Shown: positions 24,273 through 64,000, counted from the stretch's first letter. The stretch: DNA of 64,000 nt from a phage (GCA_025823825.1 GCA_025823825.1_4720.1); one strand, 5' to 3'. A program made the numbers and translations. The notes: a model not told the origin generated them from the sequence alone.

Positions 24273-24719
24273 TTAGAAATTATTGCCGAACTGGTTATGG
24301 TTATATGGTTGGTAGTGTCCGTAATTACCTGGGAAGCCACCATACGGCACAGGCTCCGGTTTAGGGATTTCCATGGTCGGATTTTTGGAATTGATTGCCA
24401 TCACGTAAATTGTTACGGGTGATACCGCGCGATTCATTTCGACGGCCACACGACGGATGTAGCCAACGTATGCTGTTATTGCAGGCATTAGCTTGTCCCC
24501 TTCGGTAGTTATAACGGTACCATCAGAAAGAATCTCGCGAACCGCGCACCATTTACCAAGATGAACGCCTTGCTGCGGCTTTATTCCAGTAGCGATAGAG
24601 AGATAGGTATCGTACGTCGTTTGATGATTCGGATGGCTATAGATAGATTCTGCTTTGGTTTCGTCTTTTCCTAAGTATTCGCCTTGCATGGGGGTAGGAG
24701 TTGATGAAGAATGTGGCAT
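24273..24719 (-). CDS. paralog family C member (148 aa)
   Basis: AAGGAG RBS; shares (Y)xHPxxxTTYDxYL(S/T)I...G(K/E/A)W(C/R)(A/M/I)(V/I)REI...DG(T/R)(V/I)(I/V)T with 24831-25691 and 25745-26545. Confidence 0.65.
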   Translation of the reverse strand: MPHSSSTPTPMQGEYLGKDETKAESIYSHPNHQTTYDTYLSIATGIKPQQGVHLGKWCAVREILSDGTVITTEGDKLMPAITAYVGYIRRVAVEMNRAVSPVTIYVMAINSKNPTMEIPKPEPVPYGGFPGNYGHYQPYNHNQFGNNF

Positions 24720-24830
24720 GTTCGATTCTCCTTCGAGTTGTTTGATCGATTGTTCAACTGGTACTGATTACGATTGGTTGATAACAGTAGAGCTACCGCT
24801 TAAAAACTCTACCGTTGTTTAGATACCGTA

Positions 24831-25691: not shown

Positions 25692-25744
25692 TTTTGTAGC
25701 TCCTCGATTAAAGTAAAGATGAACGCGATCATTTATTATCGCTT

Positions 25745-26545
25745 TTAGTTTTTACCATTCCCCCAGCTAGGTTCTTCGTAGAAATGATGCGGATAACCAG
25801 AGTAGGAACCCATGACACAAGAGGCCGTTTCTTTTCGTGAATCGATGACCAGCGCATAAAACTGTCTGAGGTTCGACAACATAGAGAAATAAGACGACAG
25901 CACTTTTTCGTTTAACGCATCGCACGGTAAGCAGGTGCGACCGCAAAACGTCACAATACGGCCATCAGGATAGATCTCACGAATCATTCGCCATTCACCG
26001 ATGTCGACCGGCGACGGTGTAGATGTACCGCCCGTTATTGTTAAATATCGGTCGTACGTAGTACGGCATTCAGGATGAACGTAAATCGGTTGGGCATCAA
26101 TACTATCGTTTTCTGTTTGATCTTTACTCACGTATACCTCAAGGTAGATTGTTGGTAACCCGGTTAGAACGCCAGTATCACGACGTTTTTTGGTAATCCG
26201 GGGACGGATATTATCGAGCACGCCTTCCAGTTTTTCTGCGACTTCGTCAGCCGGTAATATATACCCGTATGTTGGTTCTGGGTCATCATCGTGGCTAAAT
26301 AAGATACGACAGTCGTTTTTATTAAATTCTATATCTTCAGGTGGGAAGATGATGACGCGAACCGTATGGCGTTCTGCGATATAAAATCCTTCAGGCCCCT
26401 CAGTTTTGGTAAGTGTAAAGGACCAGGATGAATGATCTTCAAGTGACGTGCCTGCCAGGAAAAAGTCCGCCCGAATTGGTGCGTTCCATTTCGCGATCAT
26501 ATTGGCGTGACCAATAACGCCTAATTTTTGATAAATATCTGTCAT
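25745..26545 (-). CDS. paralog family C member (266 aa)
   Basis: gagga RBS; conserved C-terminal domain GEWRMIREIYPDGRIVTFCGRTCLP...FYALVIDSRKE; TATATTAC-containing element upstream. Confidence 0.7.
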   Translation of the reverse strand: MTDIYQKLGVIGHANMIAKWNAPIRADFFLAGTSLEDHSSWSFTLTKTEGPEGFYIAERHTVRVIIFPPEDIEFNKNDCRILFSHDDDPEPTYGYILPADEVAEKLEGVLDNIRPRITKKRRDTGVLTGLPTIYLEVYVSKDQTENDSIDAQPIYVHPECRTTYDRYLTITGGTSTPSPVDIGEWRMIREIYPDGRIVTFCGRTCLPCDALNEKVLSSYFSMLSNLRQFYALVIDSRKETASCVMGSYSGYPHHFYEEPSWGNGKN

Positions 26546-26608
26546 GATTGTATCCTCGGTTATTAAGAGAAATTTACAGTGATAACAGTAACCGTTGTCA
26601 TCACCTTA

Positions 26609-26632
26609 GTAATATAGCCATGAAATAAACTG
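26609..26632 (-). promoter_or_regulatory. conserved upstream element with TATATTAC (candidate phage early/middle promoter) for 25745-26545
   Basis: Minus strand reads CAGTTTATTTCATGGCTATATTAC; near-identical 24-nt element at 63139-63162. Confidence 0.45.
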
Positions 26633-26652
26633 GAGTAACGCGCTTAAGACAG

Positions 26653-26697
26653 CATAGAACCCTCTCCCAACCCATAAGGGAAGGGAGAGGGAATATT
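26653..26697. terminator. hairpin element, copy 5 (tandem minus-strand genes)
   Basis: cata-gaaCCCTCTCCC-aaccc-ataa-gggaa-GGGAGAGGG-aatatt; stop codon of 26696 gene in right flank. Confidence 0.6.
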
Positions 26698-32000: not shown

Positions 32001-35000
32001 TTACTTGTAGGCACCGCAATGGGCTTTGATGAGGAAAAGCACCGCTTGCATCGGTTTATTGAACTGTTGCCATAACGTCAATGCCGGATGGAACAGCCAA
32101 TCTTCCAGGCCGAGAACAATACCGTAGTTAACGACATTATTAACATCGTTCTCAACGTTGAGTTCGCTGTCCAGGAATTTATCGATTGAACGCAGGGTCT
32201 GCATGGCGTTGTCAGCAATAAGCCAAGCTTCATGCGCTTCACGAGCCGCACGCAGCACTGCCTCCAGTTCGCTGATAGTAGCTACCGGTAATTCCTCGCT
32301 GGTGAGGTCGTCAGAAACCGTAAACTGGCGATTGATACCGGTGTAGATCCACTGCATCAGTTTCGCTGCTTCCTCGTTCGGGTTGTTACGCGTTGTCGCA
32401 TAAGTCGCGCTCACCTTCACGATGTGTGTTTCACCAAGATACGCTTTGGAACCAATGCCTTTACGATCGCTGTCTTTCCACGGTTGTACGGTAGCGACCA
32501 TGAGCTTATCCCATTTCTGAATAGGAATACGCTTCAGACCAACAACCGATCCGGCGGATGTTTCGGACTGGTTGCTCTTCCGCACGTCGCTGAGTTCACG
32601 ATCGATAGCAACGATTAATTCACGCGTCATGTTACCAAGCATTTTGATTTCACCCAACGCAGCGATGAGCTTCTTCACATCGGTAACAGGTTCACCATCG
32701 ATGGTAAGATGACGGATGAAACGTTTCAGAATAATCCGTTCTGCTGCTGGGTTACCGCGACGCGCTTTAGCCAATGCTTGCTGCGTTTCGGCGAACAGCT
32801 TATCCCATGGAGCCGTAGCGGCGGTATAGTAACGGTGGTTGGTTTCAATCCAGTTACCGATACGGTTGACCGCGCTCTTAACGGTATCCATGAATCCTTC
32901 CATCGCAATTTCGGTAGCTTCGACGTTACCCTGGAAGTTATCAGGACCGATCTCACGTGCCGCTACCAGAATACCTTCCACCGCGCTCACCGCATGACGA
33001 CCGATAGCCAGATTTCGCTGTGCTTCTTCAGCACGCTCAACGAATTCCACTACCGCAGGATCGTCGACGATTTCCGCCTCGGCAACAACACGAGTACCTG
33101 CATCGCCTTCCAGTGTTTCGATGGTGACAACCGGATCGTTTTCACCAGCAACATCCTGATACTCTTCCTGTTTGAGATCGCCATCATCGGCCGCTGCAAC
33201 AGCGGTGAGTATACGAACGGTAACATCGCCGAGTTCTTTTGCAGCGAATCCGTAAACAGTGCATGCGGTCGTTGCAAAGTTCATCAGAGTACGTGTGCGC
33301 TGCGTGACGTAGCGTGCGCCTGATTCGTTTTCCACTTTGTCTAGATCGCGGAGTAACTGCTCGGCCGTCTCCTGAAGTTGAGTAGCTGCTTTCAGGAGGT
33401 CTTCGTCAAACAGTTTCGTTGACGCATCGATCAGCATTTCAACGCTAACGTTGGACGGTACAGCATCATCCTGCTGTTTCATGGCGCTAAGTTCGTCACG
33501 GAACTCACGAATGCCGTTTAACGCATCGTCGATGGAATATCCGAACGCTTTCACGCCTGCCATTCCAAGAGCGGCTTTCATTTCACCTGGATGCTGAACT
33601 TGCTCGCCTTCCTTGCTGTTCTTTAACTCATCGAAATATTTCTTCGACGCGTCCGCAATACGTTTACTGTCTTTAACCGCATTTACGATCTTATCGACAG
33701 ATTTCGAGTCGTTTGCGAGCAGGGTATCCAGTTTATTCCACTCAACGTCAACCTTCTTGGTGTCGCTCGGCGGAGGAAGCAGTTTCATCACTGGTGCTGT
33801 GCGTTGTTCTTTGGTCAGCTTGTTGGCCTTCTCTTCGATTTTTTTCTTATTAACACCAAAGAGATTTTTCAAACGCGCCACGAGGGCTTTTAAGAACTTC
33901 GCGACCGCTTCGTAAACCGACTTCAGAATCTGTTTAAAGCGACCCGGCTGCTTTTCCCCGTCTTCCAGATTGAGATCGCTGTTCAGTGCGACATCAAGCT
34001 GTTTGTACGATTCCATGATGTATTCGTCTTTGATTTCAGGACGAATCTCGAAGCTTTCCATCGGACCTTCAGCCGGACGGAATTCCATTTTCAGTTCGCC
34101 TTGCAGGGTAGGGTCGACAATGGCGATCGCTTCACCCTGACCATCAGCGTTAAAGCGTTCAGCGTAACGAGTACGGCGAACAATAACACTCTTATCCCCA
34201 TCAAGACGACGTACTACCATGGTGCCAGGAATGTACGGTTGTTCTGTTTCAATGACGGTTACATCTGTTTCACCCTCACCGAGAATAACAGATGCACGCT
34301 GTTCAACAACAGGAACATCTAATACACCACGGGCTTCCAGCTCTTGATGAATTTCGAACGACTCTTGTTTCAGATCTTCATCTTCTTCGTTTTCGTCGCC
34401 TTCATCATCGTCACCTTTGGTGTTTTCATCACCCTTGGTGGTTGTGTCGTCGGTGGCACCAGCGTCAGCGTCGGTGTTAGCAGGTTCTTCGGACGCAGGT
34501 TCGGTGGTGTTGTCCTCCGTGGACGACCCGTCAATGTTATCGACATCAACATCACCTTGCAGTTCTGTTTCCTGAGCAACTGCTTCGGCTTTCTGCTCGC
34601 CGGTATTACCATCATTAGCGTCGACAACAGGTTGTTCGTCAGCGACGGTATCTTCAACCTTTTCTACTTTCTCTACGACATGTTTAATCACGGTGACTTT
34701 GATGGGTTCTTCCGTTGTTTTGGTTTCTGGCGTCACCTCGGCTGCCGCAGCAGCTGTTTCAGCAACAGGTTCTGCTTTTTCCGGTTCGACGACATTACCT
34801 TTAACGCCTTCGGTGGTTTCTGCAGGTTGCGCCGTCTGTTCGATTTGTGCCGGATTGGTCGGATCGATGGCGTTAGCCGCATCCTGAATCTTGTTCTTCA
34901 GGTTGTCACGGTCAGCGTTAACGGTCGGGTCATTGGTTACTTTCGGTGCCGGGGTTTCGGTCGGCGCGTTTGCTGGATATGGGTTCTTCGGCTCTTCGCC

Positions 35001-35378
35001 AGGTGCGGTTGGTACCGCGATCAGAACGAACGGTTGAACGTCGTTACCGTCTTCCATGGTTACGCCGCCGTTACTTGGCGTGAAACGAATTCGCAAACTA
35101 CCATCAATAGGACGGGTCACAATAACAGCGCGTACGACATCTTCACCGTTCTCATCCGTGCTACGAATCACACGAACGGCGTCATCAACAGTAGCCCCTT
35201 CCTCGAGCGTATCTGATTCGATCGTCGCTTCGATGCTGTCTGGCCGTGCCGCTGTAGGTAATGCGATCACCTGCTCTTCTTTATCAGTAGAAAGCGTCGC
35301 TTTGACTTCGATCGGTGTATCGCCGCTTTCCAGGTTAAGATGCGACTTACGCATCAGATCAGCTAACGATTTTTTCAT
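32001..35378 (-). CDS. large virion/head-type protein (1125 aa), paralog family D, acidic low-complexity N-terminal half
   Basis: Long ORF; central region (...SYKQLDVALN...KQILKSVYEAVAKFLKALVARLKNLF...) resembles other family D members. Confidence 0.8.
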   Translation of the reverse strand: MKKSLADLMRKSHLNLESGDTPIEVKATLSTDKEEQVIALPTAARPDSIEATIESDTLEEGATVDDAVRVIRSTDENGEDVVRAVIVTRPIDGSLRIRFTPSNGGVTMEDGNDVQPFVLIAVPTAPGEEPKNPYPANAPTETPAPKVTNDPTVNADRDNLKNKIQDAANAIDPTNPAQIEQTAQPAETTEGVKGNVVEPEKAEPVAETAAAAAEVTPETKTTEEPIKVTVIKHVVEKVEKVEDTVADEQPVVDANDGNTGEQKAEAVAQETELQGDVDVDNIDGSSTEDNTTEPASEEPANTDADAGATDDTTTKGDENTKGDDDEGDENEEDEDLKQESFEIHQELEARGVLDVPVVEQRASVILGEGETDVTVIETEQPYIPGTMVVRRLDGDKSVIVRRTRYAERFNADGQGEAIAIVDPTLQGELKMEFRPAEGPMESFEIRPEIKDEYIMESYKQLDVALNSDLNLEDGEKQPGRFKQILKSVYEAVAKFLKALVARLKNLFGVNKKKIEEKANKLTKEQRTAPVMKLLPPPSDTKKVDVEWNKLDTLLANDSKSVDKIVNAVKDSKRIADASKKYFDELKNSKEGEQVQHPGEMKAALGMAGVKAFGYSIDDALNGIREFRDELSAMKQQDDAVPSNVSVEMLIDASTKLFDEDLLKAATQLQETAEQLLRDLDKVENESGARYVTQRTRTLMNFATTACTVYGFAAKELGDVTVRILTAVAAADDGDLKQEEYQDVAGENDPVVTIETLEGDAGTRVVAEAEIVDDPAVVEFVERAEEAQRNLAIGRHAVSAVEGILVAAREIGPDNFQGNVEATEIAMEGFMDTVKSAVNRIGNWIETNHRYYTAATAPWDKLFAETQQALAKARRGNPAAERIILKRFIRHLTIDGEPVTDVKKLIAALGEIKMLGNMTRELIVAIDRELSDVRKSNQSETSAGSVVGLKRIPIQKWDKLMVATVQPWKDSDRKGIGSKAYLGETHIVKVSATYATTRNNPNEEAAKLMQWIYTGINRQFTVSDDLTSEELPVATISELEAVLRAAREAHEAWLIADNAMQTLRSIDKFLDSELNVENDVNNVVNYGIVLGLEDWLFHPALTLWQQFNKPMQAVLFLIKAHCGAYK

Positions 35379-37885: not shown

Positions 37886-37939
37886 CATAAAACCTTCCTC
37901 CAACCCAACAGGGAAGGAGGAAGGGATATAGTGGTTATG
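37886..37939. terminator. hairpin element, copy 7 (tandem minus-strand genes)
   Basis: cata-aaaCCTTCCTCC-aaccc-aaca-gggaa-GGAGGAAGG-gatatagtggttatg. Confidence 0.6.
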
Positions 37940-39224
37940 CTTTTTCGGTCGCTGCGTTGAAGTATTTCGCTGCAGCAAATACAGCATCCGCATATTGGCG
38001 TATCGAAGCGCGAAGAATCTTGGTTGACAATACCGTACTTAAACGTGCCATTTCAGAAACCGCGCCTACATAAGGACGGATGGTTTCACGATCGGCTTCA
38101 GGCAGCTTGTCAAGCATGTCGCCCCACTTCGTTTTGATTTTCATACCGTTGAGTTTAGCGGTACGCTCCACAGAACCAGCCAAAGCTTCAACCATGTGGA
38201 AATAAGAGGGGTCGATCGTACGGAACACGTTAAGATAGGAAGTCAACGCACCTTTCAGTTCGTTATCGTCTTTGAAAATGTTTGCGTTCTCTATCTCACC
38301 GGTCACCGTCGTCTCGGCTTCAACCCGAATATTTTTCACCAACGTATAGGCTTTAATCGCGTCACGTTCGTTTTCGACGGCGTCGAGACCTTGAATAACG
38401 AAACGTTTCCCACCACTTTCTGGAAAAACAACTTTATTCAGAGCGGATTTGATAGCCAGCAGGTATTTGTCTAAGATAGACGGAAGCAGAGTTAGGTCGG
38501 TGAGGTCTGCGACCTTTTTATTGATATCGGCTACTTGCTTAAACAATGAATCCATCCCGCTTGCGCTTGCAGCGAGTTGTTCGATATGCTTGCTTGCAAA
38601 CATGGCATTCGCTGATTTCGCATTAGGGAACATATTGACCATATTTTCAGTGGGCTTATCCAGTTGTTTGATATGGCGTTCACCTTTATTCACGGCGGTT
38701 GCGATGCCGACAATTTTGTTGTATGCGACGACCAGGTTCTTGAACAGCATCTGGAGCAGTTTGAACAGTTGTTCAGCGATATTTGCAATGATTACCCAGA
38801 CGGCATATAACGCTTGCGCTGCGCGCTCTTTAAAGCCTTCCAGTACAATAGCTTGCCCTTCCACCAAACGATCGTCAGCTTGGAACATGTCTTCATCAGA
38901 CATCCCCAGGTTTGCTGCTGATGTCGAAGCAATCTGACGGATAAAGGCGACGTCGCTTGCACGTGCTTCAGGGATCGTGGGTGCGATCATATACGCTGTA
39001 TCTTCCAGTGTCGCTGATGTACGCACTGCAATCTCAGCCAGTTCGCTGGATTCATCGATTGCCTCGTCGGTACGTTGAATTACCAACTCAACTTCACCCT
39101 CTTCAATTTCTGCGTTAGGATCGTTCTGCTCCGCCGGAATCGTTGCGAGGAGATCTTCAGCACTCAGTAGAGAGAGTTCGAATGCGTTTTTATTGACGTT
39201 GTCAAAAAGAGAAATGCGGGCCAT
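37935..39224 (-). CDS. virion/head-type protein, paralog family D (429 aa)
   Basis: ORF; SDVAFIRQIASTSAANLGMS...VEGQAIVLEGFKERAAQALYAVW aligns with 39234-40574. Confidence 0.75.
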   Translation of the reverse strand: MARISLFDNVNKNAFELSLLSAEDLLATIPAEQNDPNAEIEEGEVELVIQRTDEAIDESSELAEIAVRTSATLEDTAYMIAPTIPEARASDVAFIRQIASTSAANLGMSDEDMFQADDRLVEGQAIVLEGFKERAAQALYAVWVIIANIAEQLFKLLQMLFKNLVVAYNKIVGIATAVNKGERHIKQLDKPTENMVNMFPNAKSANAMFASKHIEQLAASASGMDSLFKQVADINKKVADLTDLTLLPSILDKYLLAIKSALNKVVFPESGGKRFVIQGLDAVENERDAIKAYTLVKNIRVEAETTVTGEIENANIFKDDNELKGALTSYLNVFRTIDPSYFHMVEALAGSVERTAKLNGMKIKTKWGDMLDKLPEADRETIRPYVGAVSEMARLSTVLSTKILRASIRQYADAVFAAAKYFNAATEKA

Positions 39225-40574: not shown

Positions 40575-40591
40575 AAGATAAACCTGAGCGG

Positions 40592-40636
40592 CATAGAACC
40601 CTCTCCCAACCCGTGAGGGAAGGGAGAGGGAATATG
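40592..40636. terminator. hairpin element, copy 8 (tandem minus-strand genes)
   Basis: cata-gaaCCCTCTCCC-aaccc-gtga-gggaa-GGGAGAGGG-aatatg. Confidence 0.6.
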
Positions 40637-40652
40637 TCAGTTTATTAACTGA

Positions 40653-41984
40653 TTATTTCTGTTCTGCGTCAGCCGGTTTCTCAGCCGTCTGGCCGCCGTA
40701 CTCTTTCAGCATTTTAGCAACGCCATCCAGAACAGCATTACCTGCCTGAACACCGTACTTCATCAGGCTAACCTGCGGGTTGATGTAGCAAGAACGTGCG
40801 TCTTTCAGTGCAGACAGCACGGTTTTAACACGCTGTTTTTCCTGAGCAGAAACTTCGCCTTTCTTAGACAGTTCAGCTTCCATATCGTCGCCGAATTTAA
40901 CGGCGTCTTTGAAGCCCTGGGATTTCTTACCGATGTTACCTTTCGCAGCCAGCAGTTTATCAGCCAGTGCTTCAACACTGTTGATCACCGCAGCCAACTG
41001 GTTCGGGGACAGTACATCAGCTTCCTGTTCCATCGCGGTGATTGCGTTATTACCGCGTTCCCAGGTAACTTTACCGTCGGTGGTTTTGAATCCCCAACCG
41101 TTCGGACCTTTCACATCAGCGATCGCAGGTGCGTTCAGTTTGTCGGTGTACTCAGTATGTGATTTAGACTTAACGAGTTCAACGAATTTATCCGCACGAT
41201 CGTCAGCCGCCTTCATTGCTTTCTCGAAGGTATCTGCGATTTTGCTTGATGCGCCAGCGATATCGGTATCGCCAATGTAACCGGTAACAGTGGTGCCCAG
41301 TTTAACTTTCGCGTTCTTCGGAGAGCCTTTACGTTTGGCGATCATTTCTTTCAGTTTAGCCGCACGCGCTTTCAGTTTGGTTGCACCGTCGAAGATACGA
41401 TCGATGAACTTCACGAAGTTGTCCCAGGTGGATTTCAGGAAGTTCTTAATTGCGGTCCACAGTTTCTGCCACCATTTTTGTTCTTCCAGGAAGATCATGT
41501 TGGTTGCATCGTAACGGGAAGCGGAACCGCCGAAGCTTTCGAAGGACGGCATGGTTTCCGGCAGTTTGAAACCGATAGTACCACACAGACGTTTCAGATT
41601 ACGCATGTGTTCCTGAGCGGTTTGTGCAGACATACCGCCGTCTTTCAGGTAGCTTTCGGTCGCAACAACGGTTTCCGTCAGTTCATCCATGGCTTCGTCC
41701 ATGGCTTCTGCGGTTTCGTCGTCTTTTGCAATTTCGATAACAACGGCATCAACCTGCTCGATATCACCACGAACTTCGATAGCCAGTTCGGTTTCAGCTG
41801 CGGTATCTTCAGCAATTTCAGCACGTTCGGTCAGTTCAGCGACAACGGTTTCATCCGCTGCTGCAGCATCAGCTGCCGGTTCTGCTTCAACGGTTGCCGC
41901 TGCATCCGGATCGATTTCAGCAGCAAGTTGAACCAGCTGTGCGTTAGATGGATTTGCGACAAGACGATCAAAAATAGAAGGCAT
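40653..41984 (-). CDS. abundant virion/head-type protein, paralog family D (443 aa), A/E-rich acidic N-terminal region
   Basis: ORF with host-optimal codon bias like the 18116-20338 gene; N-terminal propeptide-like region with many A-x-E motifs. Confidence 0.8.
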   Translation of the reverse strand: MPSIFDRLVANPSNAQLVQLAAEIDPDAAATVEAEPAADAAAADETVVAELTERAEIAEDTAAETELAIEVRGDIEQVDAVVIEIAKDDETAEAMDEAMDELTETVVATESYLKDGGMSAQTAQEHMRNLKRLCGTIGFKLPETMPSFESFGGSASRYDATNMIFLEEQKWWQKLWTAIKNFLKSTWDNFVKFIDRIFDGATKLKARAAKLKEMIAKRKGSPKNAKVKLGTTVTGYIGDTDIAGASSKIADTFEKAMKAADDRADKFVELVKSKSHTEYTDKLNAPAIADVKGPNGWGFKTTDGKVTWERGNNAITAMEQEADVLSPNQLAAVINSVEALADKLLAAKGNIGKKSQGFKDAVKFGDDMEAELSKKGEVSAQEKQRVKTVLSALKDARSCYINPQVSLMKYGVQAGNAVLDGVAKMLKEYGGQTAEKPADAEQK

Positions 41985-56360: not shown

Positions 56361-56581
56361 TGTACACTCTCTAAATTTACGTAAATTTAAGGGCTAATGG
56401 ATCGGCTGGCCGCACCAATCACAATGTGTTCGTTGCTATGCAACGGCATTCATAGAAATACCTTTTGACGGTAACATCACCCATCACACCCCAAGCAATA
56501 AGAGTGGTCGGTTAAAAACAACAGAACGTGAGGATGATATAGAAATTCACCTTTTAACACCTATTACGAGTTTAGCAAGCC

Positions 56582-58333
56582 ATGAGCGAACAAGAACGAA
56601 AACCTAAGAAGAAACTGCTCGGTATTCAATGTCGACACATCAGTTATAACGAAGCGAACGATGGCAGCAAGAACGACCTCATGATCGCAAAAGAGATCAT
56701 GTTCTTTGATGACAATACGCAAGCGACGAACCTTCGCTTCTTTGAGAATTACAAACGTCCGTTTTGGGTGACGGTAGAGAGTAAACGTAAGAACAAATAT
56801 AAAAAGGAAAGCGAGAAGCTCTCGCATGTGCGTCGCTACGATGTCCGCCAAAGCGAACTGGTTGAAAAGATCAGCTCGGTACTTTATAAAAGACGTGCTG
56901 ACGATAACACCCGTTTACAGCAGCTTGCACGGAGTCCATACCTCTATGGAACGGACGTTAGCGCCAGCTGTTATTTAAAAACCCAGTACAACACAAAATG
57001 GCCGGAATACGTCGATAAATTACCCGCTTCCATTGCCTGTTTCGATATCGAAACCGACGTTGTCCACGGACACGGTAAGATCGTTTGTATGTCTATTACA
57101 ATGGGATACAATGCGATACTTTGCTATACCAAGGACTTCGTTGGTCATATTCCGAATGCCATTGAGAAAACCCATGAGAAGATTCGATATTACCTGGCCG
57201 AACGTCTGAATACCAAAGAAGATCCCCACGCATTCGAAAAATATCAGTACGATGTTCGAATCGTAGAAAGCCCGGCACAAGCGGTCATCCAATGCATGCA
57301 GAAGGTTCACGAATGGCAGCCGGATTATCTCCTTGGCTGGAATATCGCGTTCGATATTCCGCGTATGCTCCAGGCACTGAACGAGGAAGGGTATCGTCCC
57401 GAGGATGTTTTCTCCGATCCTCGCGTACCACCTAAGTATCGTATTGCTCGCTGGGTGCCACCGAAGACCGACAAGGTATCTGCTTCAGGTCGTAAAACCA
57501 ACCTTACCCTCGAGCAAACCTGGCCGATGTTTTATACGATGGCTACGTATCAGGTTATGGATGCGATGTGTGGTTATAAGTTCGTTCGTTTAGGAAGACC
57601 GGATGAAGGACGCTATTCACTCGATGCGGTATTAGAGCGAAATAAATGCCATACGAAATTAAAAGCAATTCCTGGTACAGAAGGGTTCACGGAGCTCGCC
57701 TGGCACGAAGAGATGCAAACGAACCATCAAATCGACTACGGCGTATATAACCTTTGGGATAACCAGGGTATTGAGGCGTTGGACCAGAAAACAAAAGACT
57801 ATTCGATGACCATCCCTATCCGTTTAGCGGCGTCGGATTTGAAAGATTTCAGTTCTAACCCTAAACGTATCTGCGATAAACTTTTCTTCGTTTATCTTAA
57901 CCGTGGGGAAGTCATGGGATGTACCGCTGACGACATGACCCAGGAAGAAGATAAGTGGGTTATCTCACGAGCTGGACATATCGTCACATTACCATGCGAT
58001 CTCATGGCTGACAACGGCATTCATCTCTTCTGGGATATGCCGAACCTGAGAAGTTATATCCGTCTATTCGTTGCAGACCTTGACATTAGCAGTTCATACC
58101 CAAATGGGCAGATCCTGTTGAATCTATCCAGAGCATGTGTTTTTCGTGAGCTCTCGCGCATTGAGGGCGTCTCTGACTATCAATTCAGGAAGTTAGGTAT
58201 CAACTTTATTACCGGAGGTAAAACGAACGCTGTAGACTTCTGTAGAATCGTTTATAAAGCACCGTCGATGTTTGAACTTTTAGAACATTTCGATGCGACG
58301 CGTCCAAAAGAGGAAGCGCGGACCATCGAATGA
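56582..58333 (+). CDS. family B DNA polymerase, N-terminal part (3'-5' exonuclease domain plus polymerase motif A)
   Basis: 583-aa ORF; Exo I CFDIETD, Exo II GWNIAFDIP, Exo III YNLWD, motif A-like DISSSYPNG; no motif B/C before stop. Confidence 0.7.
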   Translation: MSEQERKPKKKLLGIQCRHISYNEANDGSKNDLMIAKEIMFFDDNTQATNLRFFENYKRPFWVTVESKRKNKYKKESEKLSHVRRYDVRQSELVEKISSVLYKRRADDNTRLQQLARSPYLYGTDVSASCYLKTQYNTKWPEYVDKLPASIACFDIETDVVHGHGKIVCMSITMGYNAILCYTKDFVGHIPNAIEKTHEKIRYYLAERLNTKEDPHAFEKYQYDVRIVESPAQAVIQCMQKVHEWQPDYLLGWNIAFDIPRMLQALNEEGYRPEDVFSDPRVPPKYRIARWVPPKTDKVSASGRKTNLTLEQTWPMFYTMATYQVMDAMCGYKFVRLGRPDEGRYSLDAVLERNKCHTKLKAIPGTEGFTELAWHEEMQTNHQIDYGVYNLWDNQGIEALDQKTKDYSMTIPIRLAASDLKDFSSNPKRICDKLFFVYLNRGEVMGCTADDMTQEEDKWVISRAGHIVTLPCDLMADNGIHLFWDMPNLRSYIRLFVADLDISSSYPNGQILLNLSRACVFRELSRIEGVSDYQFRKLGINFITGGKTNAVDFCRIVYKAPSMFELLEHFDATRPKEEARTIE

Positions 58334-58382
58334 ATCAAGTATGTTGATCCTCGTTTAACAAAAAAAGAAAACGCATGCGAAG

Positions 58383-58435
58383 CCCCTCCCCCTGGCGGAA
58401 GCCGGAGGGAGGGGTGGAGGTTTTATGCGTTTTTA
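58383..58435. terminator. hairpin element, copy 11, with T-run on plus strand (terminator of DNA polymerase fragment gene)
   Basis: CCCCTCCCCC-tggcggaagccgg-AGGGAGGGG-tggaggttttatgcgttttt. Confidence 0.6.
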
Positions 58436-58879
58436 ATTATTGCTGCTGGGGTTATCGCCCGGATTATATTCGATGCTGTAGGCGACGTCGCGGTCTGTCG
58501 TATGAACGACAAGCGTGACGGGGAAATCATAATGCGCGGTTTTGTCTCGAACGAACGGGGTAAAGAGATCCGTATAACGTATTAAGTCTTCCCTGGTGTA
58601 ATCGGAAGGGAAGAAGGCATCGATGGTTATTGAATCTTCATAGAGGCGTATGATCAGCTTATCCAGAAGGTTGCTATATTGGTTAGCTGGGGTGACGTTC
58701 AGGTGACAGAAGTCACCGTCTTCTGCTTCTCGCAATACCCATACCGTGGTATCCTGTAACGTATTTTCAAGGATCTCGAAAATGCAGTTTGCTGTAAGTC
58801 TTAGTTTATTTGTTACTTCATGGTTAGGGGAATAATGCTCACGAATGTTTTTCACTGCGTCTTTGATAGAGAAAGTCAT
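58433..58879 (-). CDS. small protein, paralog family A (C-terminal DFPVTLVVH...EYNPGD motif)
   Basis: Track ORF 58433-59110 trimmed to internal ATG at 58879 (MTFSIKD...) because a separate-frame ORF occupies 58893-59186. Confidence 0.55.
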   Translation of the reverse strand: MTFSIKDAVKNIREHYSPNHEVTNKLRLTANCIFEILENTLQDTTVWVLREAEDGDFCHLNVTPANQYSNLLDKLIIRLYEDSITIDAFFPSDYTREDLIRYTDLFTPFVRDKTAHYDFPVTLVVHTTDRDVAYSIEYNPGDNPSSNN

Positions 58880-58892
58880 TGCTGCTGCTCCT

Positions 58893-59186
58893 TTAAAAGA
58901 TATCAAGCCATGAGGATGGAGGAACCAGTTCGCTGGTAAAGTAATCGCCACTGATACCACTATCATCAAAGTGACGTTCGTTGTAACACTGGACGAGCTT
59001 ACCTCCACGTTCTTTCTGATACCATCCAAGGATACTATTAAGACCTCTGTCCACGCATTCGAATGCTTGAGTAATAACATCCTCAACGACGGAGGCTGCC
59101 GTGGGACCATTGAATAGACGATCTAAGCGCTTTTTCATCGATTTGGTTTTCTCGTTCATGATTTCTTTTCCTGTTATAATCGGCAT
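58893..59186 (-). CDS. small hypothetical protein (88-97 aa)
   Basis: ORF; first ATG coincides with hairpin-flank TATG; an alternative start 27 nt in has agga upstream. Confidence 0.45.
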   Translation of the reverse strand: MPIITGKEIMNEKTKSMKKRLDRLFNGPTAASVVEDVITQAFECVDRGLNSILGWYQKERGGKLVQCYNERHFDDSGISGDYFTSELVPPSSWLDIF

Positions 59187-59227
59187 ACAACCCTTCCCCG
59201 GCCTTGACGGCTAGGGAAGGGGCTATG
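59184..59227. terminator. hairpin element, copy 12
   Basis: cata-caaCCCTTCCCC-ggccttgacggcta-GGGAAGGGG-ctatg. Confidence 0.5.
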
Positions 59228-59235
59228 CTACGTTG

Positions 59236-59664
59236 TTATGCTTCGCAATCAGCTGAAGGCGTCGCGCCTTTCTTACCAGCGATACGCCAAATCCGACACG
59301 CTGGGTAATGGTTAACCTCTAGAGAGCAAGGAATGTTATATTTCTCTTCCAGCGCATAAAGACATTTCGTTAGCTGCTCCAGCGCGTTCTCGTCGTGTCG
59401 TAACGCGTGGTGACCTAATCGATGTTGGTCGTTCTTTATATACGCCTCGAAGAGAACATGTTGGCGATGTACGCTGACGTTTACAGCCTCGAGTATAGCT
59501 TGGTCGAGCATACGACTAAAGCACATCAACGAGTCAGATACGTTTTCTCGCTTAACCAGATCGATCATGGCGGGAATATACGAATGGTCGATGTTATCGA
59601 TGACCGCTTTAGCGACGGAATCAGCAACGTTCATCTTTTTAATCCCTAGTTTGTTATTGATCAC
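59236..59664 (-). CDS. small protein, paralog family B member 1 (142 aa)
   Basis: Shares V(A/V)KAV(I/N)DNIDH...MIDL(V/I)K...EEKYNIP(C/F)SLEVN with 59671-60066. Confidence 0.6.
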   Translation of the reverse strand: MINNKLGIKKMNVADSVAKAVIDNIDHSYIPAMIDLVKRENVSDSLMCFSRMLDQAILEAVNVSVHRQHVLFEAYIKNDQHRLGHHALRHDENALEQLTKCLYALEEKYNIPCSLEVNHYPACRIWRIAGKKGATPSADCEA

Positions 59665-59670
59665 GTATAT

Positions 59671-60066
59671 TTACTCTTTGACGTCAGTTGTCGTTTCGAC
59701 ATGCTTCTCACTACTGACGTACCAGAGCAGGTACGTTGGGAAAAGATTGACCTCTAAGCTAAATGGGATATTGTATTTCTCTTCCATTTTGCAGAGATGT
59801 TCTTTAAGTAAATTTCTCGCGTCTCTGTCACCACGAACAGAGTGCCAGTCTAGTTCTTTGTTCTCCTTTACCAGGATCTCTACGATGATACGTTGCTCGT
59901 GAACCTCGGTTTTCACAGCGGCAAGTAAATCGCTGCTATCAAAACGGGTAAAACGAATGTATGAACCAGGTGTTTTTTCTTGTTTAATAATATCGATCAT
60001 GGTAGAAATGCGCGGATGATCGATGTTGTCGTTAACAGCTTTAACGATGGATTCTACAATGCTCAT
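59671..60066 (-). CDS. small protein, paralog family B member 2 (131 aa)
   Basis: Tandem duplicate of 59236-59664 by protein similarity. Confidence 0.6.
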   Translation of the reverse strand: MSIVESIVKAVNDNIDHPRISTMIDIIKQEKTPGSYIRFTRFDSSDLLAAVKTEVHEQRIIVEILVKENKELDWHSVRGDRDARNLLKEHLCKMEEKYNIPFSLEVNLFPTYLLWYVSSEKHVETTTDVKE

Positions 60067-60098
60067 TTTTTATCCTTAATGTTATCGATTTGGAAATA

Positions 60099-60866
60099 TT
60101 ACTTATTTTTGCTTTCTTTATAGACAGTTGTTACCCACGATGGGAAAGCCGGATGGAAACAGAGCGTGAACGTAACTGTCGTATCGTATTTAAACGCACA
60201 GTTCACTAACCGGGTATCTAACGTTTTCCTTAATCCGTCATCATCGTTATCGATGATGGTCATATCTCTTAATATCCCAAGCACGTTAACGCCATCGGGT
60301 GTCTGGGTTACGACAAGTCGTCGTAATGGCCCGCATGTATAGTCACGTACAAATCCTTTCTTCGGGTCCGATACCCTGTTTAACGCATCGTGATTTTTGA
60401 TGAATTCATCGGCGATACAATAGGTTTGTTCCCTTGCTTTATCGGGATCGTATTCTGCTAATAGTTCCTTCGTGTCGAACGTTATCATGTTATTATCATT
60501 CGATTCAGAAGGGAAACATAAAACTAAACGAACAGGGTATTCGTATTGATCTGTTCTTGTTTCGAAAGCATTAGCTAGACACGGCTTGTATGCCTTTGCG
60601 TCGACATTGTCCAAACATGGATGCAATAATGCATGAATAACGGCACCATCGTCAGTTAAACCGAATTCCAGAAATTGTACCCTATCAGTATCCGCTACGG
60701 TTTTCTGAAGGTACGCTTTACCGTTAACAATATCGGTATCCCACATATCGTCGTTTAACGATTCTTCAAACTTATCGAATATATGGTTTACGAGATTGAC
60801 GAGTTCATCAATACGGCACTGTTGGTTGAATTCGATTAATCGTTGAACTTTATCTTTGATAGACAT
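60099..60866 (-). CDS. small protein (255 aa), probable paralog family A
   Basis: ORF; YEYPVRLVLCFPSESNDNNMITFD resembles the family A C-terminal motif. Confidence 0.65.
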   Translation of the reverse strand: MSIKDKVQRLIEFNQQCRIDELVNLVNHIFDKFEESLNDDMWDTDIVNGKAYLQKTVADTDRVQFLEFGLTDDGAVIHALLHPCLDNVDAKAYKPCLANAFETRTDQYEYPVRLVLCFPSESNDNNMITFDTKELLAEYDPDKAREQTYCIADEFIKNHDALNRVSDPKKGFVRDYTCGPLRRLVVTQTPDGVNVLGILRDMTIIDNDDDGLRKTLDTRLVNCAFKYDTTVTFTLCFHPAFPSWVTTVYKESKNK

Positions 60867-60868
60867 GA

Positions 60869-61327
60869 TTACCCATTAGCTCCTTCTTCGTCTGGAGAGT
60901 ATTCCATCGTGTAGAATTCATAACCATCGGAAAACTTGAGTGTTAATGTAATAGGGAAATCGCACGGCATAGCTGATTTCGTAAATGCGTTATTAGCAAC
61001 ATCGGCCAACCGACGTATAGCATCAGTCCCGCTGACGCTGAACGGTAGTTGTATGTTGATAAGGATGCGGTGCTTGTAAACATGGAAAACAACGGTACTG
61101 TCAAGATAAACGCTATGGAACGGTATTGTTGGGATGCGTTCCACGATGGTAAAATACGTCCCGTCATTATCGCTATGTCCCACCGACCAAATATCGGATT
61201 TGCGTAGATTTTGTTTGAGAGATTCGATGCTTCGAGTGACGGTCTCATCAACAGGCGTGACGTAAGTGTCTTTATGCGAGTCGAAAAGTTCGTTGACGTT
61301 AGATTCGAATGAATACATTGTTGCCAT
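60869..61327 (-). CDS. small protein, paralog family A (152 aa)
   Basis: C-terminal CDFPITLTLKFSDGYEFYTMEYSPDEE. Confidence 0.6.
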   Translation of the reverse strand: MATMYSFESNVNELFDSHKDTYVTPVDETVTRSIESLKQNLRKSDIWSVGHSDNDGTYFTIVERIPTIPFHSVYLDSTVVFHVYKHRILINIQLPFSVSGTDAIRRLADVANNAFTKSAMPCDFPITLTLKFSDGYEFYTMEYSPDEEGANG

Positions 61328-61393
61328 TATTCTACCTCAATGGTTTAACCGATACGTGCCCCACCTAACAAGGGACACGTTATCGTTGATTAA

Positions 61394-61894
61394 TTACTCT
61401 TCTGTGTTTTCATTATCGGGATCGTAGTGGAATTCGAACAGCCCTGAACCGTCGTGTCCGTTGATTGTTAGTATAACGGGCATATCGAATCCTCGGACGC
61501 GCGAATGAAAACATTGTGCTAATTTTAGTTTGGCGTATGCCGCTATTTCATTGACGGCAATACACGACTCACCTGTTATACTCAGTATAACGTCGATACT
61601 AACAACGTTGTCGTGCAACGCAAAACGCCAGCGATCGATACGATTATTATCTTTATCGGTTGTCTCGTTTACGAGATAGACTTTATCGTCAACCGACAAA
61701 GCGGGACTCCAGCAACGATCGTTTATTAAATTCGCCTGGAGTTTTAGTATCGTCTGATCGATAATATCCCAACACGTAACCAGCGTGGTGTCAGGCACTG
61801 AGTAGAGAAGGGCGTGCACTTTATCCTTTATTTTAAGTGCTTCCGCAGGACGTCCGCAAATACCATGCATTTCAACTTTCTTATTCATATTCAC
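61394..61894 (-). CDS. small protein, paralog family A (166 aa)
   Basis: C-terminal FDMPVILTINGHDGSGLFEFHYDPDNE. Confidence 0.6.
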   Translation of the reverse strand: MNMNKKVEMHGICGRPAEALKIKDKVHALLYSVPDTTLVTCWDIIDQTILKLQANLINDRCWSPALSVDDKVYLVNETTDKDNNRIDRWRFALHDNVVSIDVILSITGESCIAVNEIAAYAKLKLAQCFHSRVRGFDMPVILTINGHDGSGLFEFHYDPDNENTEE

Positions 61895-61931
61895 TTCTTT
61901 CTTAATCTAAATGTTAGTTGGGGTGGGATGC

Positions 61932-62564
61932 TTACATGCTTTCTAGCATATTGACGATCATGGAACCCATACCGAAACTCGGTCTTTCACCGATGTACTC
62001 AGCAAGCTGGCGATGGACGTCTTTTGGATTTCCTTCTTCACCATCGGCATCGATGTAAACCGAAAAAGAAACCGAATCGGAATCCACGCTGATAACCAGA
62101 CGACGTTCATTGCGTTCCTTGAGCGTGTCGACGATAGATGCTTTCAGTACCGGGATCGCATTCATCGCGTGCAAGATATCTCCATCGGGTTTCGGCAGAT
62201 CGATCTTTTCTTTCAGGTCGATATTGATGTTGGTTACAATTGGGTTGAGGTCGACCTTGACGTAATCGTTAGGGTACATGCGAATAATCGCACGATCGAT
62301 ATCTGAACCGTAAAAGTCAACACGTGGCTTTAACACTTCTTTGTTTGGATCCATGTTTTCATCCATACCCGCCCGCAAGAAACGTTCTACGTTATCCAGT
62401 TCACGATAAACTGACGCTTCGATTTCTTTCAGATAGTTGGCTGCGGTTTCATGTTCTTTACGCAGCTCGTCTTTAAGGAGCTGTACGGTGGTTTCACTGG
62501 AACGAATGCTGTTCGCGAATTGGGTAATTGACATATCGAATTCCTTAAATTCTCTTGAGTTCAA
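61932..62564 (-). CDS. small hypothetical protein (~200 aa)
   Basis: ORF; probable start at internal ATG near 62534 (MSITQFANS...) with aagga RBS. Confidence 0.6.
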   Translation of the reverse strand: MNSREFKEFDMSITQFANSIRSSETTVQLLKDELRKEHETAANYLKEIEASVYRELDNVERFLRAGMDENMDPNKEVLKPRVDFYGSDIDRAIIRMYPNDYVKVDLNPIVTNINIDLKEKIDLPKPDGDILHAMNAIPVLKASIVDTLKERNERRLVISVDSDSVSFSVYIDADGEEGNPKDVHRQLAEYIGERPSFGMGSMIVNMLESM

Positions 62565-62582
62565 TTAATGATGAAAAGCTGT

Positions 62583-62612
62583 AAAAAAAAAAAAGGTGGG
62601 GCGAACCCCACC
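62583..62612 (-). terminator. canonical intrinsic terminator for the minus-strand gene 62638-63063
   Basis: ggtgggg-cgaa-ccccacc hairpin preceded on plus strand by A12, so the minus-strand RNA ends hairpin + U12. Confidence 0.75.
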
Positions 62613-62637
62613 AAAACGTCAGACACACGCGGGAAAA

Positions 62638-63063
62638 TTAATTCAGTGATGCATATAAGGCATAACGACTGTAGATCTCAACCGCCGGTCCGTTATGCGT
62701 TAACAGACCGTCTCGGCTGTAATACTGGAAAAATGAATAACGTTTGTCGAAGTGATAAACAAAAGCAATGTCTTTGCCGTCAAAACCTGTGATGCGTGGT
62801 CTGTTTTTATCTAGCAATGCTTTGACTTTTAACAGTGTTGCCGCACGTGCTTTAACGTTAGGGATCAAGCCATCACAATCGATATAAACAGTGTAACCTG
62901 TTTCAGATGTTGCGACGGTCGTATTGCGATTGACGCGGAAGATTTTTGTTTCGTATGTACTATCTTCAAGAATTGGGTTTTGTTTTTCGTATTTTCGTTT
63001 ACGCAGAAATTCTACAACGGTGATATAGTTAGCGGTAATATGCCCGGTTATAGCTTGTATCAT
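62638..63063 (-). CDS. small hypothetical protein (141 aa)
   Basis: ORF followed on its 3' side by a canonical hairpin plus T-run terminator; conserved upstream element shared with 25745-26545. Confidence 0.6.
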   Translation of the reverse strand: MIQAITGHITANYITVVEFLRKRKYEKQNPILEDSTYETKIFRVNRNTTVATSETGYTVYIDCDGLIPNVKARAATLLKVKALLDKNRPRITGFDGKDIAFVYHFDKRYSFFQYYSRDGLLTHNGPAVEIYSRYALYASLN

Positions 63064-63138
63064 CTTGACATCCTCTTATATCGGATTGGTTGCAATTGTC
63101 TTAAATAGATGATAAGATATTTTGCTCTTATCACTAAG

Positions 63139-63162
63139 GTAATGTAGTCGTGAAATAAACTG
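63139..63162 (-). promoter_or_regulatory. second copy of conserved upstream element (CATTAC variant) for 62638-63063
   Basis: Plus strand gtaatgtagtcgtgaaataaactg versus gtaatatagccatgaaataaactg at 26609-26632. Confidence 0.45.
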
Positions 63163-63184
63163 CGTTAACAAGAAATAAAAAACA

Positions 63185-63240
63185 GCATAGAAACCTCCTC
63201 CCCCATCCTTCAAGAGGACGGTGGGAAGAGGGAGAGATTA
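63185..63240. terminator. hairpin element, copy 13 (degenerate)
   Basis: cata-gaaaCCTCCTCCCCC-atccttcaagaggacggt-GGGAAGAGGGAGAG-attaaatg; imperfect stem. Confidence 0.4.
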
Positions 63241-63639
63241 AATGTCGTGGACGGCAATGCCGTTTAACCAGCAATACAGCTTAACGCGACACGGATACCG
63301 CTTCGTTGCAGCAACCATTTCATCACGTAAACGCTGGTAGATTTCATCCTGGTGTTCACGTTCAATGGGGTAATCAGCCCAACATTCGATCATGACGTCA
63401 CCATTCGTCAGAATCGTCGTACGCATCCTGTCCTGGATACGGCGGTCTTTCCCGGCGTTAGGGAAATACATTCCTTCAGTACGAATAAGGTCGCCGCAGG
63501 GCATGACTAACCATTCGTTCGTTTTGCCGGTATTCTTATAATCCATTACAGCTTGCATTGCGGTGTCAACGCTAAAAGAAACATAATTCCAAACGGATGT
63601 CCAACGATAGATTGCGGGTTGTTCGAGTGTTTCGTTCAT
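63238..63639 (-). CDS. small hypothetical protein (133 aa)
   Basis: ORF flanked by hairpin elements on both sides. Confidence 0.6.
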   Translation of the reverse strand: MNETLEQPAIYRWTSVWNYVSFSVDTAMQAVMDYKNTGKTNEWLVMPCGDLIRTEGMYFPNAGKDRRIQDRMRTTILTNGDVMIECWADYPIEREHQDEIYQRLRDEMVAATKRYPCRVKLYCWLNGIAVHDI

Positions 63640-63686
63640 GGAGTGCTTTTCCTATTTTTATTTTCTGCACAGGATAAATTCAACGG

Positions 63687-63731
63687 CATAAAGCCCTTCC
63701 CTGCCCTTATATGGGGCGGGAAGAGTTTATG
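63687..63731. terminator. hairpin element, copy 14
   Basis: cata-aaGCCCTTCCCtGCCC-ttatat-GGGGCGGGAAGAG-tttatg. Confidence 0.5.
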
Positions 63732-63858
63732 ACCGCAGTGAGAATCTCTCACGACAAGCTCACGACGATTATCGCATCACCCCGCGAGTGAGGGAGATCA
63801 GGATCACCTCCTACGTCGTAATGACAGCAATCCTGTTACGTCGCCTTAGACGTTATGC

Positions 63859-64000
63859 AAAGCGACGCATGTAACCTGCCAGATAGTTACGCGTATCGAA
63901 GTAGGCAATTTCAGGAATTGCGATATTAAGGTCGATAGCACGGATTTCAACTTGGCGACGGCTTTCATCATAGATCGCATCCATCAGACGCAGTACTGTC
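63859..64000 (-). CDS. C-terminal end of a gene entering from the right window edge
   Basis: Manual translation gives open frame ending ...NYLAGYMRRFA then TAA (plus-strand tta near 63859-63861, inside a TTATGC context). Confidence 0.4.

Follow-up and report, generated by a model that had tools for sequence, protein, structure and literature searches.

A variable island of early small genes in a Goslar-like jumbo phage: a tentative case for host-directed binding proteins

In the 64,000-nucleotide stretch of phage DNA analysed here (GCA_025823825.1; the whole stretch is called the window), ten small, co-oriented open reading frames (ORFs) occupy positions 58433-63639 of the minus strand. They are named g1 (58433-58879) to g10 (63238-63639). 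In our tentative reading, g9 to g1 (63063 down to 58433) are an accessory island of early genes in a chimallivirus of the Goslar type, and this island encodes host-directed binder proteins. Direct results of this analysis are the protein families, their predicted fold, the variation of the locus and the promoter motif, all described below. The window belongs to a Goslar-like nucleus-forming jumbo phage (Chimalliviridae; E. coli). Among 50,697 phage records it matches only vB_EcoM_Goslar, and nucleotide identity ranges from 93% to 98% (98% over the first 24 kb; 93% over 71% of 56500-64000). An earlier annotation made without database searches (the sequence-only reading) had reported ten small tandem genes, and ten such ORFs are present. 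It had also treated the array as one unit, which does not hold, as g10 differs in expression class and g8, g9 and g10 have no detectable relation to the protein families A and B introduced below. The array had been called AT-rich, which it is to a modest degree (GC content 43.1%, window 47.0%). Its proteins are soluble and, with isoelectric points (pI) of 4.7-6.0, acidic; the exception is g9. The true starts of g2 (M10, 59159), g3 (M11, 59634), g7 (M3, 61888) and g8 (M11, 62534) were taken from gene calls in relatives.

Published tables show for the Goslar orthologues that they are expressed early and independently of the nucleus and are nearly absent from virions; the expression data cover the orthologues of g2 and g6-g9, the virion data gp070-075. 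In Goslar, the annotated order is DNA polymerase gp068, HNH/NUMOD1 endonuclease gp069, the small hypothetical genes gp070-076, gp077, and RNA polymerase beta subunit gp078. Knockdown of ChmA, the protein of the nuclear shell, splits the Goslar genes into those that are unchanged or rise by about 1 log2 unit and those that fall by 3-8 log2 units (Supplementary Table 2, 10.1101/2023.09.20.558163). The log2 ratio of knockdown to control is +1.0 to +1.3 for gp070-075; the flanks gp048-069 and gp076-093 are down by 3.6-6 log2 units, with reductions of 10- to 100-fold or more, and gp076, the orthologue of g10, falls with values of -4.5 to -6.1 into the late, nucleus-dependent class (10.1101/2023.09.20.558163). 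This is why g10 is placed outside the island. Reads per nucleotide, computed from the published table, are flat from gp075 to gp070 (0.8-1.3). The Goslar island is therefore best described as what these data display, namely six early, nucleus-independent genes inside late blocks; the expression timing, which the sequence-only reading had named as a check, is early for gp070-075. The nucleus-independent expression that characterizes an early unit of the virion RNA polymerase was found for the orthologues of g2 and g6-g9.

The estimated numbers of copies per virion are 0.40 for gp073, 0.48 for gp075, 0.54 for gp072, 3.7 for gp071 and about 8 for gp074 (Table S4, 10.64898/2026.04.21.720040). This is the range of non-virion RNA polymerase contaminants, and with 0.4-8 copies gp071-075 are not structural proteins. 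Taken together with the early expression, these values speak against stoichiometric virion components and ordinary structural proteins, either of which would have refuted the sequence-only reading. Note that gp070, which is not in the window, reaches about 166 copies, a value close to the approximately 170 copies estimated for the non-virion protein PhuZ (Table S4, 10.64898/2026.04.21.720040); gp070 is either packaged or simply abundant. Its gene (6682-7167 in L001; L numbers are our locus labels) belongs to neither A nor B, is early-class, has no counterpart in the window and occurs in Goslar, L008, L011 and L014 only.

According to all-against-all blastp comparisons, family A consists of g1, g6, g7 and the first 146 residues of g5 (E-values of 1e-5 to 2e-4; 1e-5 for the N-terminal domain of g5 and g7). 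A further member, in the form of a fragment, is g2. The motifs [FY]D[FM]P[VI]xL and EYxP are present in the family A alignments, and hhalign comparisons between the orthogroups of the family gave probabilities of 73-97%, the pair of g1 and the N-terminal part of g5 reaching 97%. Thus blastp, motifs and hhalign agree with the family of g1, g6, g7 and probably g5 that had been postulated, where g5 contributes its N-terminal 146 residues only. Family B comprises g3 and g4, which are 38-39% identical (blastp E-value 1e-30). This pair had been regarded as a recent tandem duplicate. The pairing and both motifs quoted for it were confirmed, the recent origin was not: because of the identity of 38% and because a search for DNA-level repeats in the array gave short chance matches only, there are no recent duplications, and the duplication underlying family B is old.

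A profile pooled from family A aligned with family B over the C-terminal strand-helix-strand element (hhalign probability 88.8%, P 2.5e-6). Since the predicted topologies match as well and both families share their two best structural matches in the PDB, A and B probably form one superfamily. Its features are an N-terminal SIKDxV-type pair of helices, a meander of three to four strands, a C-terminal helix, a strand of the type [YF](D/N)xPhxLxh and a closing strand, all of which were found. At the end of the C-terminal 109 residues of g5, the beta-alpha-beta motif recurs in degenerate form (KYDTTVTFTLCFHP); the scores of this half (independent E-value 0.05 with the A profile, E-value 0.035 with the B profile, hhalign P 0.003) are suggestive only of a relation to the A/B motif. 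In hhalign comparisons g8, g9, g10 and Goslar gp070 showed no relation to A/B, a weak negative in view of the small orthogroup profiles. A short similarity centred on VYID(A/C)DG links g8 (61932-62534) and g9 (62638-63063) (blastp E-value 0.014, hhalign P 0.0013), and these two could be distantly related to each other.

AlphaFold2 models were computed with alignments for one member of each family. The family A model (g7) has a predicted local distance difference test score (pLDDT) of 76.6, a predicted template modelling score (pTM) of 0.69 and the topology aa-bbbb-a-bb; the family B model (g4) has a pLDDT of 86.1, a pTM of 0.79 and the topology aa-bbb-a-bb. The models suggest that the superfamily adopts a compact alpha/beta fold without a close solved relative. 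For both models the best matches in the PDB were the T3S4 domain of the type III secretion ruler PscP (5cuk) and PA3611 (3npd), with about 80 aligned residues; these are likewise compact two-layer alpha/beta domains. Membership in the T3S4 family was rejected, as neither a profile match nor a C-terminal location in a secreted ruler protein was found. A second candidate, the PD-(D/E)XK nucleases, arose from weak matches to herpesvirus UL24 in BFVD and was discarded as well: Foldseek TM-scores were 0.25-0.32 and a conserved acidic/lysine triad is missing. Apart from these weak UL24-type matches, Foldseek found in BFVD only Goslar gp073 itself. The invariant columns of family A are L56, W62, I100 and Y157; its conserved positions are residues of the hydrophobic core plus the D-P turn, with no catalytic-type residues among them, which makes an enzyme unlikely.

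In database searches, none of the ten proteins had a match that rose above noise in Pfam (no match at E-values up to 1 save sub-threshold noise), PHROGs, PADLOC (zero families at E-values up to 0.1) and NCBIfam. When the profiles of families A and B as well as g8 and g9 were compared with PDB sequences, the best match was to SiAga1 with an E-value of 0.05, i.e. noise. Known anti-defence proteins (Acr, Ocr/ArdA-type DNA mimics, Tad, Gad and others) showed no sequence or structural homology, none of the ten proteins resembled a known anti-defence or takeover protein, Rfam had no match over the region, and the literature searched contained no individual mention of Goslar gp70-gp74. The profile and structure searches that had been recommended thus turned up no ordinary structural protein.

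In a collection of 5.8 billion sequences, the profile of family A matched 153 proteins and that of family B 29. Where the contigs are long enough to judge, these matches sit on contigs of up to approximately 230-260 kb; the minority that have a name are annotated as hypothetical proteins, either of Goslar or of assemblies from E. coli, Salmonella or Shigella. An exhaustive search of 1.84 billion representatives with hidden Markov models (HMMs) yielded about 14 genuine clusters, all similar in sequence to island proteins of the Goslar lineage, and three low-complexity false matches; the island is absent from 5,426 complete RefSeq E. coli genomes. Judged by these searches, the A/B family appears to be restricted to Goslar-like phages and to have been undescribed so far. 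Goslar-like contigs of approximately 236-260 kb occur in sequencing runs and in assemblies assigned to Salmonella Enteritidis, Salmonella Panama, Shigella flexneri and E. coli O157 (example proteins are P0005, P0032, P0044 and P0062). They represent either phages travelling with the isolates, in a carrier state or as contamination, or a host range beyond E. coli.

In order to assess variation, eight genomes whose polymerases are 97-99.7% identical were compared. The order of slots is g10, g9, g8, g7, Ax, g6, g5, g4, g3, gp071-type, p169, g1, gp070-type, polymerase gene. No other set of genes in this part of the genome varies as much as the island: it contains 7-12 genes, at identities of 35-85%, and each slot from Ax onward is absent somewhere. 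The comparison across related phages that had been suggested therefore revealed a variable island. Median pairwise amino-acid identity in the family slots is 37-85%, compared with 98.4% for gp078 and 97-99.7% for the polymerase. The ratio of nonsynonymous to synonymous divergence (dN/dS) is 0.18-0.43 in the family slots (reference 0.02), dS is 0.37-1.6 (reference 0.26), and dN is 10-80 times the background; a gene-wide dN/dS above 1 was not found in any slot compared. The increase in dS indicates that old alleles have been exchanged, in addition to looser constraint. Relative to Goslar, most of 45 compared genes are 97-100% identical with a dN/dS of 0.00-0.19, as opposed to g6 (87%, dN/dS 0.40), g7 (79%, dN/dS 0.26, dS 0.44) and the N-terminal part of g2 (63%, dN/dS 0.23); g1, g3, g4 and g5 have no Goslar counterpart.

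The individual slots differ in their fate. The most variable one is g1, with 35-90% identity among relatives. Both Goslar and L008 lack g3; the g4 reference was matched only in the window, L002 and L009, and a 139-residue ORF at the g4 position of L011 matches no reference protein. The gene g5 is absent from Goslar and L009 and is cut to 143 residues in L008. In relatives, g6 is preceded by an extra family A gene, Ax, and in L011 the two are fused to a protein of 305 residues. All eight genomes have kept g8 and g9, at a median identity of approximately 93-94%.

The clearest example of remodelling is g2, which is a deletion scar. It joins, in frame, the first 74 residues of a 149-residue gene of the Goslar gp071 type to the last approximately 14 residues of a 169-residue paralog. 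The underlying deletion of 697 bp occurred at the 9-bp repeat ATTACTTTA, and the junction microhomology lies at 58937-58945. On both sides of the 697-bp gap, which is bounded by ATTACTTTA, the window is 100% identical to L002, and the same junction is found in the independent contig L005. L002-L004 contain eleven genes, with the 149-residue and the 169-residue family A genes between g3 and g1; intact versions of both are present in L002-L004, L011, L013 and L014. A second natural chimera, P0158, joins the 169-residue gene to g1.

The island is headed by an early-promoter-like motif (CTACATTACCTTAGTGA; Table 1). Its 17-nucleotide core has three matches in the window at no more than one mismatch, where 0.01 are expected, and each of them heads an early-class cluster; note that the pattern was derived from the same three sites. 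They are located upstream of the gp040 orthologue, of the cluster at 24273-26545 and of g9, and they align over approximately 100 nucleotides. The shared module consists of a G-rich hairpin, TTCTATGCYG, a spacer of approximately 33 nucleotides and TTTATTTCAYGRCTAYATTACYnWRGTGA, so that in all three cases hairpin and TTCTATGCYG lie approximately 40 nucleotides upstream of the early motif. An independent check was made on a separate 50-kb stretch of Goslar, which has one perfect copy, 65 nucleotides upstream of the early gene gp105. Furthermore, the related loci (10-20 kb) have exactly one copy each, 65-121 nucleotides upstream of g9 and on the strand of the island.

We take the early core to resemble the early element TATATTAC of phiKZ. 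This octamer alone is not enriched (42 matches, 47 expected), and it is only the extended motif that is informative; sigma-70-like promoters are rarer than in shuffled sequences (9 vs 17.2). Conserved AT-rich early motifs upstream of hypothetical genes have been described for 201phi2-1 and phiKZ. The island resembles the phiKZ-type early units of the virion RNA polymerase in its nucleus-independent expression, and its AT-rich motif with TAYATTAC ahead of a cluster of hypothetical genes may be a further likeness. The putative early motif of the Goslar lineage differs in being longer and having flanks of its own (CTAYATTACYnWRGTGA). The late-promoter consensus of phiKZ contains TATG (PMC4666361), which matches the core of the hairpin-adjacent element and would suggest a corresponding role for the latter. 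The composite modules may thus be stacks of terminator, late promoter and early promoter. Modules of hairpin and TTCTATGCYG were found on the minus strand at 17928-17985, 26601-26659 and 63131-63192, and further ones at 40589-40598, 59181-59190 and 63684-63693. The 17-nucleotide motif can be put to direct use when early transcription units of the genus are annotated.

Table 1. Genes, promoter-like motif and hairpins of the array and its borders
Feature	Position	Strand	Description
Hairpin + CTTTATGCCG	63684-63730	-	upstream of g10; g10's own upstream element
g10	63238..63639	-	133 residues; Goslar gp076 orthologue, 97.7%; beside the early island, outside it; neither family A nor B
Hairpin after g10	63194-63231, then TTCTATGCTG 63183-63192	-	-28.4 kcal/mol, z -3.76
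Early-promoter-like motif CTACATTACCTTAGTGA	63131..63147	-	heads the island, 68 nucleotides upstream of the g9 ATG
g9	62638..63063	-	141 residues; basic, pI 9.4; Goslar gp075 orthologue, 98.6%; first gene of the island; not A/B
Intrinsic-terminator-like hairpin GGTGGGGTTCGCCCCACC + T12, g9/g8	62583..62612	-	z -3.53; annotated terminator in Goslar
g8	61932..62534	-	200 residues; acidic; Goslar gp074 orthologue, 95.5%; no detectable A/B membership
g7	61394..61888	-	164 residues; family A; Goslar gp073 orthologue, 79%
Hairpin g7/g6	61350..61385	-	no U-tract; -22.6 kcal/mol, z -3.74
g6	60869..61327	-	152 residues; family A; Goslar gp072 orthologue, 87%
g5	60099..60866	-	255 residues; N-terminal family A domain of 146 residues + C-terminal 109 residues
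g4	59671..60066	-	131 residues; family B
g3	59236..59634	-	132 residues; family B
Hairpin g3/g2	59183..59228, then TTGTATGCCG (59181-59190)	-	-29.1 kcal/mol, z -4.30; TTGTATGCCG has 1 mismatch to the motif
g2	58893..59159	-	88 residues; chimera of two family A genes, joined in frame by a deletion
g1	58433..58879	-	148 residues; family A; without Goslar orthologue
Long GC-rich hairpin with flanking T/A runs	58369..58432		between convergent g1 and DNA polymerase gene; -35 kcal/mol, z -3.79

Terminator-like hairpins had been said to bound each gene, which proved to be an overstatement. Significant hairpins (z -3.5 to -4.3) follow g10, g9, g7, g3 and g1, i.e. five of the ten junctions; at g8|g7, g6|g5, g5|g4, g4|g3 and g2|g1, which are 2-43 nucleotides long, no structure was detected. 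A consensus scan found 12 terminators, not above the 7.4 ± 3.0 of shuffled sequences, and the only canonical one in the array is 62595-62612 followed by T12. Goslar reads per nucleotide stay flat across this g9/g8 hairpin (gp075 0.78, gp074 1.03), and consequently it does not stop early transcription. The island probably ends at the hairpin between g1 and the polymerase gene, which is likely to terminate transcription from both sides. The polymerase ORF (56582-58333, 583 residues) adjoins the array as had been stated, though it is uninterrupted in the window rather than a fragment.

These results can be combined to the following proposal. The injected virion RNA polymerase would start at the motif at 63131-63147 in the first minutes of infection, before and independently of the nucleus, and would read through the internal hairpins up to the bidirectional terminator beside the polymerase gene. 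Translation in the host cytoplasm would give rise to small, soluble, mostly acidic alpha/beta proteins, with one lineage-specific fold presumably used in seven ORFs (g1-g7, of which six are intact and g2 is a fragment) of the nine early genes, and in up to approximately ten domains in relatives. Most likely, these proteins would bind stoichiometrically to variable targets of the host or of competitors, and thus block defence or take over host functions. The repertoire would be reshuffled by tandem duplication, fusion of neighbours, chimeras resulting from microhomology deletions, gene loss and allelic replacement. We infer the binding mode and the host-directed role; binding directed at the host, for counter-defence or takeover, appears to be the best fit when judged from context and from the analogy to accessory genes of phiKZ. 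The sequence-only reading had suggested proteins of the host-takeover or anti-defence type, which fits the data that could be checked (early, non-virion, variable) but finds no backing in homology to such proteins.

Several observations weigh against this proposal. No homology ties any island protein to a defence system or to a target in the host. As g1, g3, g4 and g5 have no Goslar orthologue, they are assigned to the early class by position only. The folds are predictions, with a pLDDT of only 76.6 for family A, and the link between A and B is of moderate statistical strength. With dN/dS below 1, relaxed constraint and recombination can explain the variation, and the dS values of 0.4-1.6 point to exchange of old alleles rather than to adaptive change in place. 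Finally, the terminator-like hairpin after g9 and the TATG-type elements before g9 and g2 indicate that there may be more than a single transcription unit.

Among the alternatives, it is conceivable, if doubtful, that the island is a dedicated counter-defence or host-range set made from one new protein fold, in which each paralog, with up to approximately ten domains per genome, acts against a different variant of an immunity system or host factor of E. coli, Salmonella or Shigella, is exchanged by recombination between paralogs, and works in the cytoplasm before the nucleus is formed. If this were true, a bacterial virus would have an equivalent of the host-range multigene families known from large DNA viruses of eukaryotes, such as poxvirus K3L amplification (gene accordions) and the multigene families (MGF) of African swine fever virus (ASFV). 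Like the island, these consist of tandem paralogs that undergo rapid gain, loss, fusion and formation of chimeras among close relatives. The analogy concerns the evolutionary mode only; the island lacks amplification of identical units, its paralogs are 20-39% identical, and DNA repeats could not be detected.

We regard a role in the early programme of the phage itself, for example in the early infection vesicle, nucleus maturation, protein sorting or the regulation of phage transcription or translation, as unlikely. Such a role would suit the expression during the vesicle stage and the retention of g8 and g9 in 8/8 genomes, and the virion copy numbers of gp074 and gp070 leave room for some products being packaged or particle-associated. 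However, the family A/B slots from Ax onward are each missing from at least one viable-looking genome, and no other chimallivirus has the family, although a core function would be expected to be shared; the core genes of chimalliviruses show high conservation, the A/B genes do not.

Less probable still is a largely dispensable orphan family under weak constraint and without a specific current function, whose duplications, deletions and chimeras arise and vanish neutrally at a site between essential genes that tolerates recombination. The dN/dS values, raised yet below 1, would be compatible with this, as would the persistence of truncated or chimeric copies (g2 in the window, the shortened g5 of L008), the AT-richer composition and the lack of homologues beyond one genus. 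In contrast, ORFs that are intact at dS 0.4-1.6 with dN/dS 0.18-0.43 imply purifying selection on each paralog; moreover, the core motif is kept across paralogs that are only approximately 20% identical, the orthologues are expressed on a par with other early genes, and the AlphaFold2 models are confident.

A use of the proteins for attack or protection when phages compete with each other (for example superinfection exclusion or interference with relatives in the same cell), with paralogs that track variable targets of competitors, is quite improbable. The neighbouring polymerase gene carries an HNH homing endonuclease in a presence/absence pattern, whose PhiPA3 homologue has been implicated in phage-phage competition, which argues for inter-phage conflict in the region; the mosaic structure of the island and the exchange of alleles between lineages are in line with this. 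Yet the content of the island does not co-vary with the endonuclease, which is absent from the window, L002 and L014 and present in Goslar, L008, L011 and L013. A role as virion or injected structural proteins is largely refuted: although Goslar packages several paralog families, among them PF12699 and DUF7941, and gp070 is estimated at about 166 copies per virion, the copy numbers of gp071-075 are at contaminant level and that of gp070 matches non-virion PhuZ, expression is early and nucleus-independent, the opposite of all structural genes, and no Pfam match to PF12699 or DUF7941 was found.

A comparison with known systems places host-directed binding, the role that we tentatively favour, in context. 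Most of the small phiKZ genes are non-essential, and both inhibitors and activators of defence are found among the non-essential clusters. These clusters (gp206-216, gp237-242; further examples are Tad1/gp184, Dip/gp37 and the ribosome-binding gp14) resemble the island as groups of small chimallivirus genes, many of unknown function. The phiKZ genes are dispensable or conditional, and some are proven defence inhibitors, activators or binders of host factors; there is no relation in sequence or detectable fold, and the island multiplies one fold in tandem within a short stretch. Within Goslar, PF12699 (gp53-58) and DUF7941 (gp22/23 and others) are, like the island, lineage-specific paralogs, some of them divergent (gp056 orthologue, 77%). 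Both families are late and nucleus-dependent, in contrast to the early island genes. The PF12699 proteins gp53-58 are present at 50 to approximately 2,150 copies per virion, and DUF7941 gp22 and gp23 reach approximately 580 and 2,140 copies, whereas gp071-075 are essentially absent from virions.

Early orphan genes with paralogs are a common feature of jumbo phages. Those jumbo phages that form a nucleus are assumed to depend on shielding their DNA physically; their needs before the nucleus is formed, and their handling of defences at the RNA and protein level, are poorly known. What makes the island valuable is a candidate locus with sharp limits and natural polymorphism, combined with a usable early-promoter motif. 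For this short, clearly delimited group of early genes, near-identical genomes provide natural knock-outs, fusions and chimeras, and thus a comparative panel. If the proteins are host-directed, a new inhibitor fold would be added, and some of the differences in host range between the Goslar-like phages in the E. coli, Salmonella and Shigella data would be explained. If the family is dispensable, the island would offer a safe site for engineering.

Further observations concern the vicinity of the island and other variable regions of the genome. In Goslar, L008, L011 and L013 the polymerase gene is split by a 1.8-kb insert with an HNH/NUMOD1 homing endonuclease; the insert site is empty in the window (58078-58096; compare 4579-6359 in L001), L002 and L014, which makes this a presence/absence polymorphism of a mobile element. 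In L014, a DUF7941 gene of 760 residues (11839-14121) lies between island and polymerase gene, and due to this insertion the boundary is also considered an insertion hot spot. A second tandem paralog family is located on the minus strand at 24273-26545. Its three genes of 148, 286 and 266 residues share a C-terminal module of approximately 90 residues, Y.HP...YD.YL.I...G.W..REI..DG..(V/I)T..G...(A/V)IDS. The cluster lies behind the early motif at 26601-26617 and adjoins the early-class genes gp044-047; these approximately 2.3 kb are absent from Goslar, which has only the 62-residue gp047 there. Several packaged PF12699 members are unusually divergent from Goslar, namely the orthologues of gp056 (77%, dS 1.2), gp058 (87%) and gp053 (94%), with neighbours at 97-99%. 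The stretches concerned are 37938-39224 (gp056 orthologue), 40656-41984 and 32004-35378, and the divergence looks like allelic replacement.

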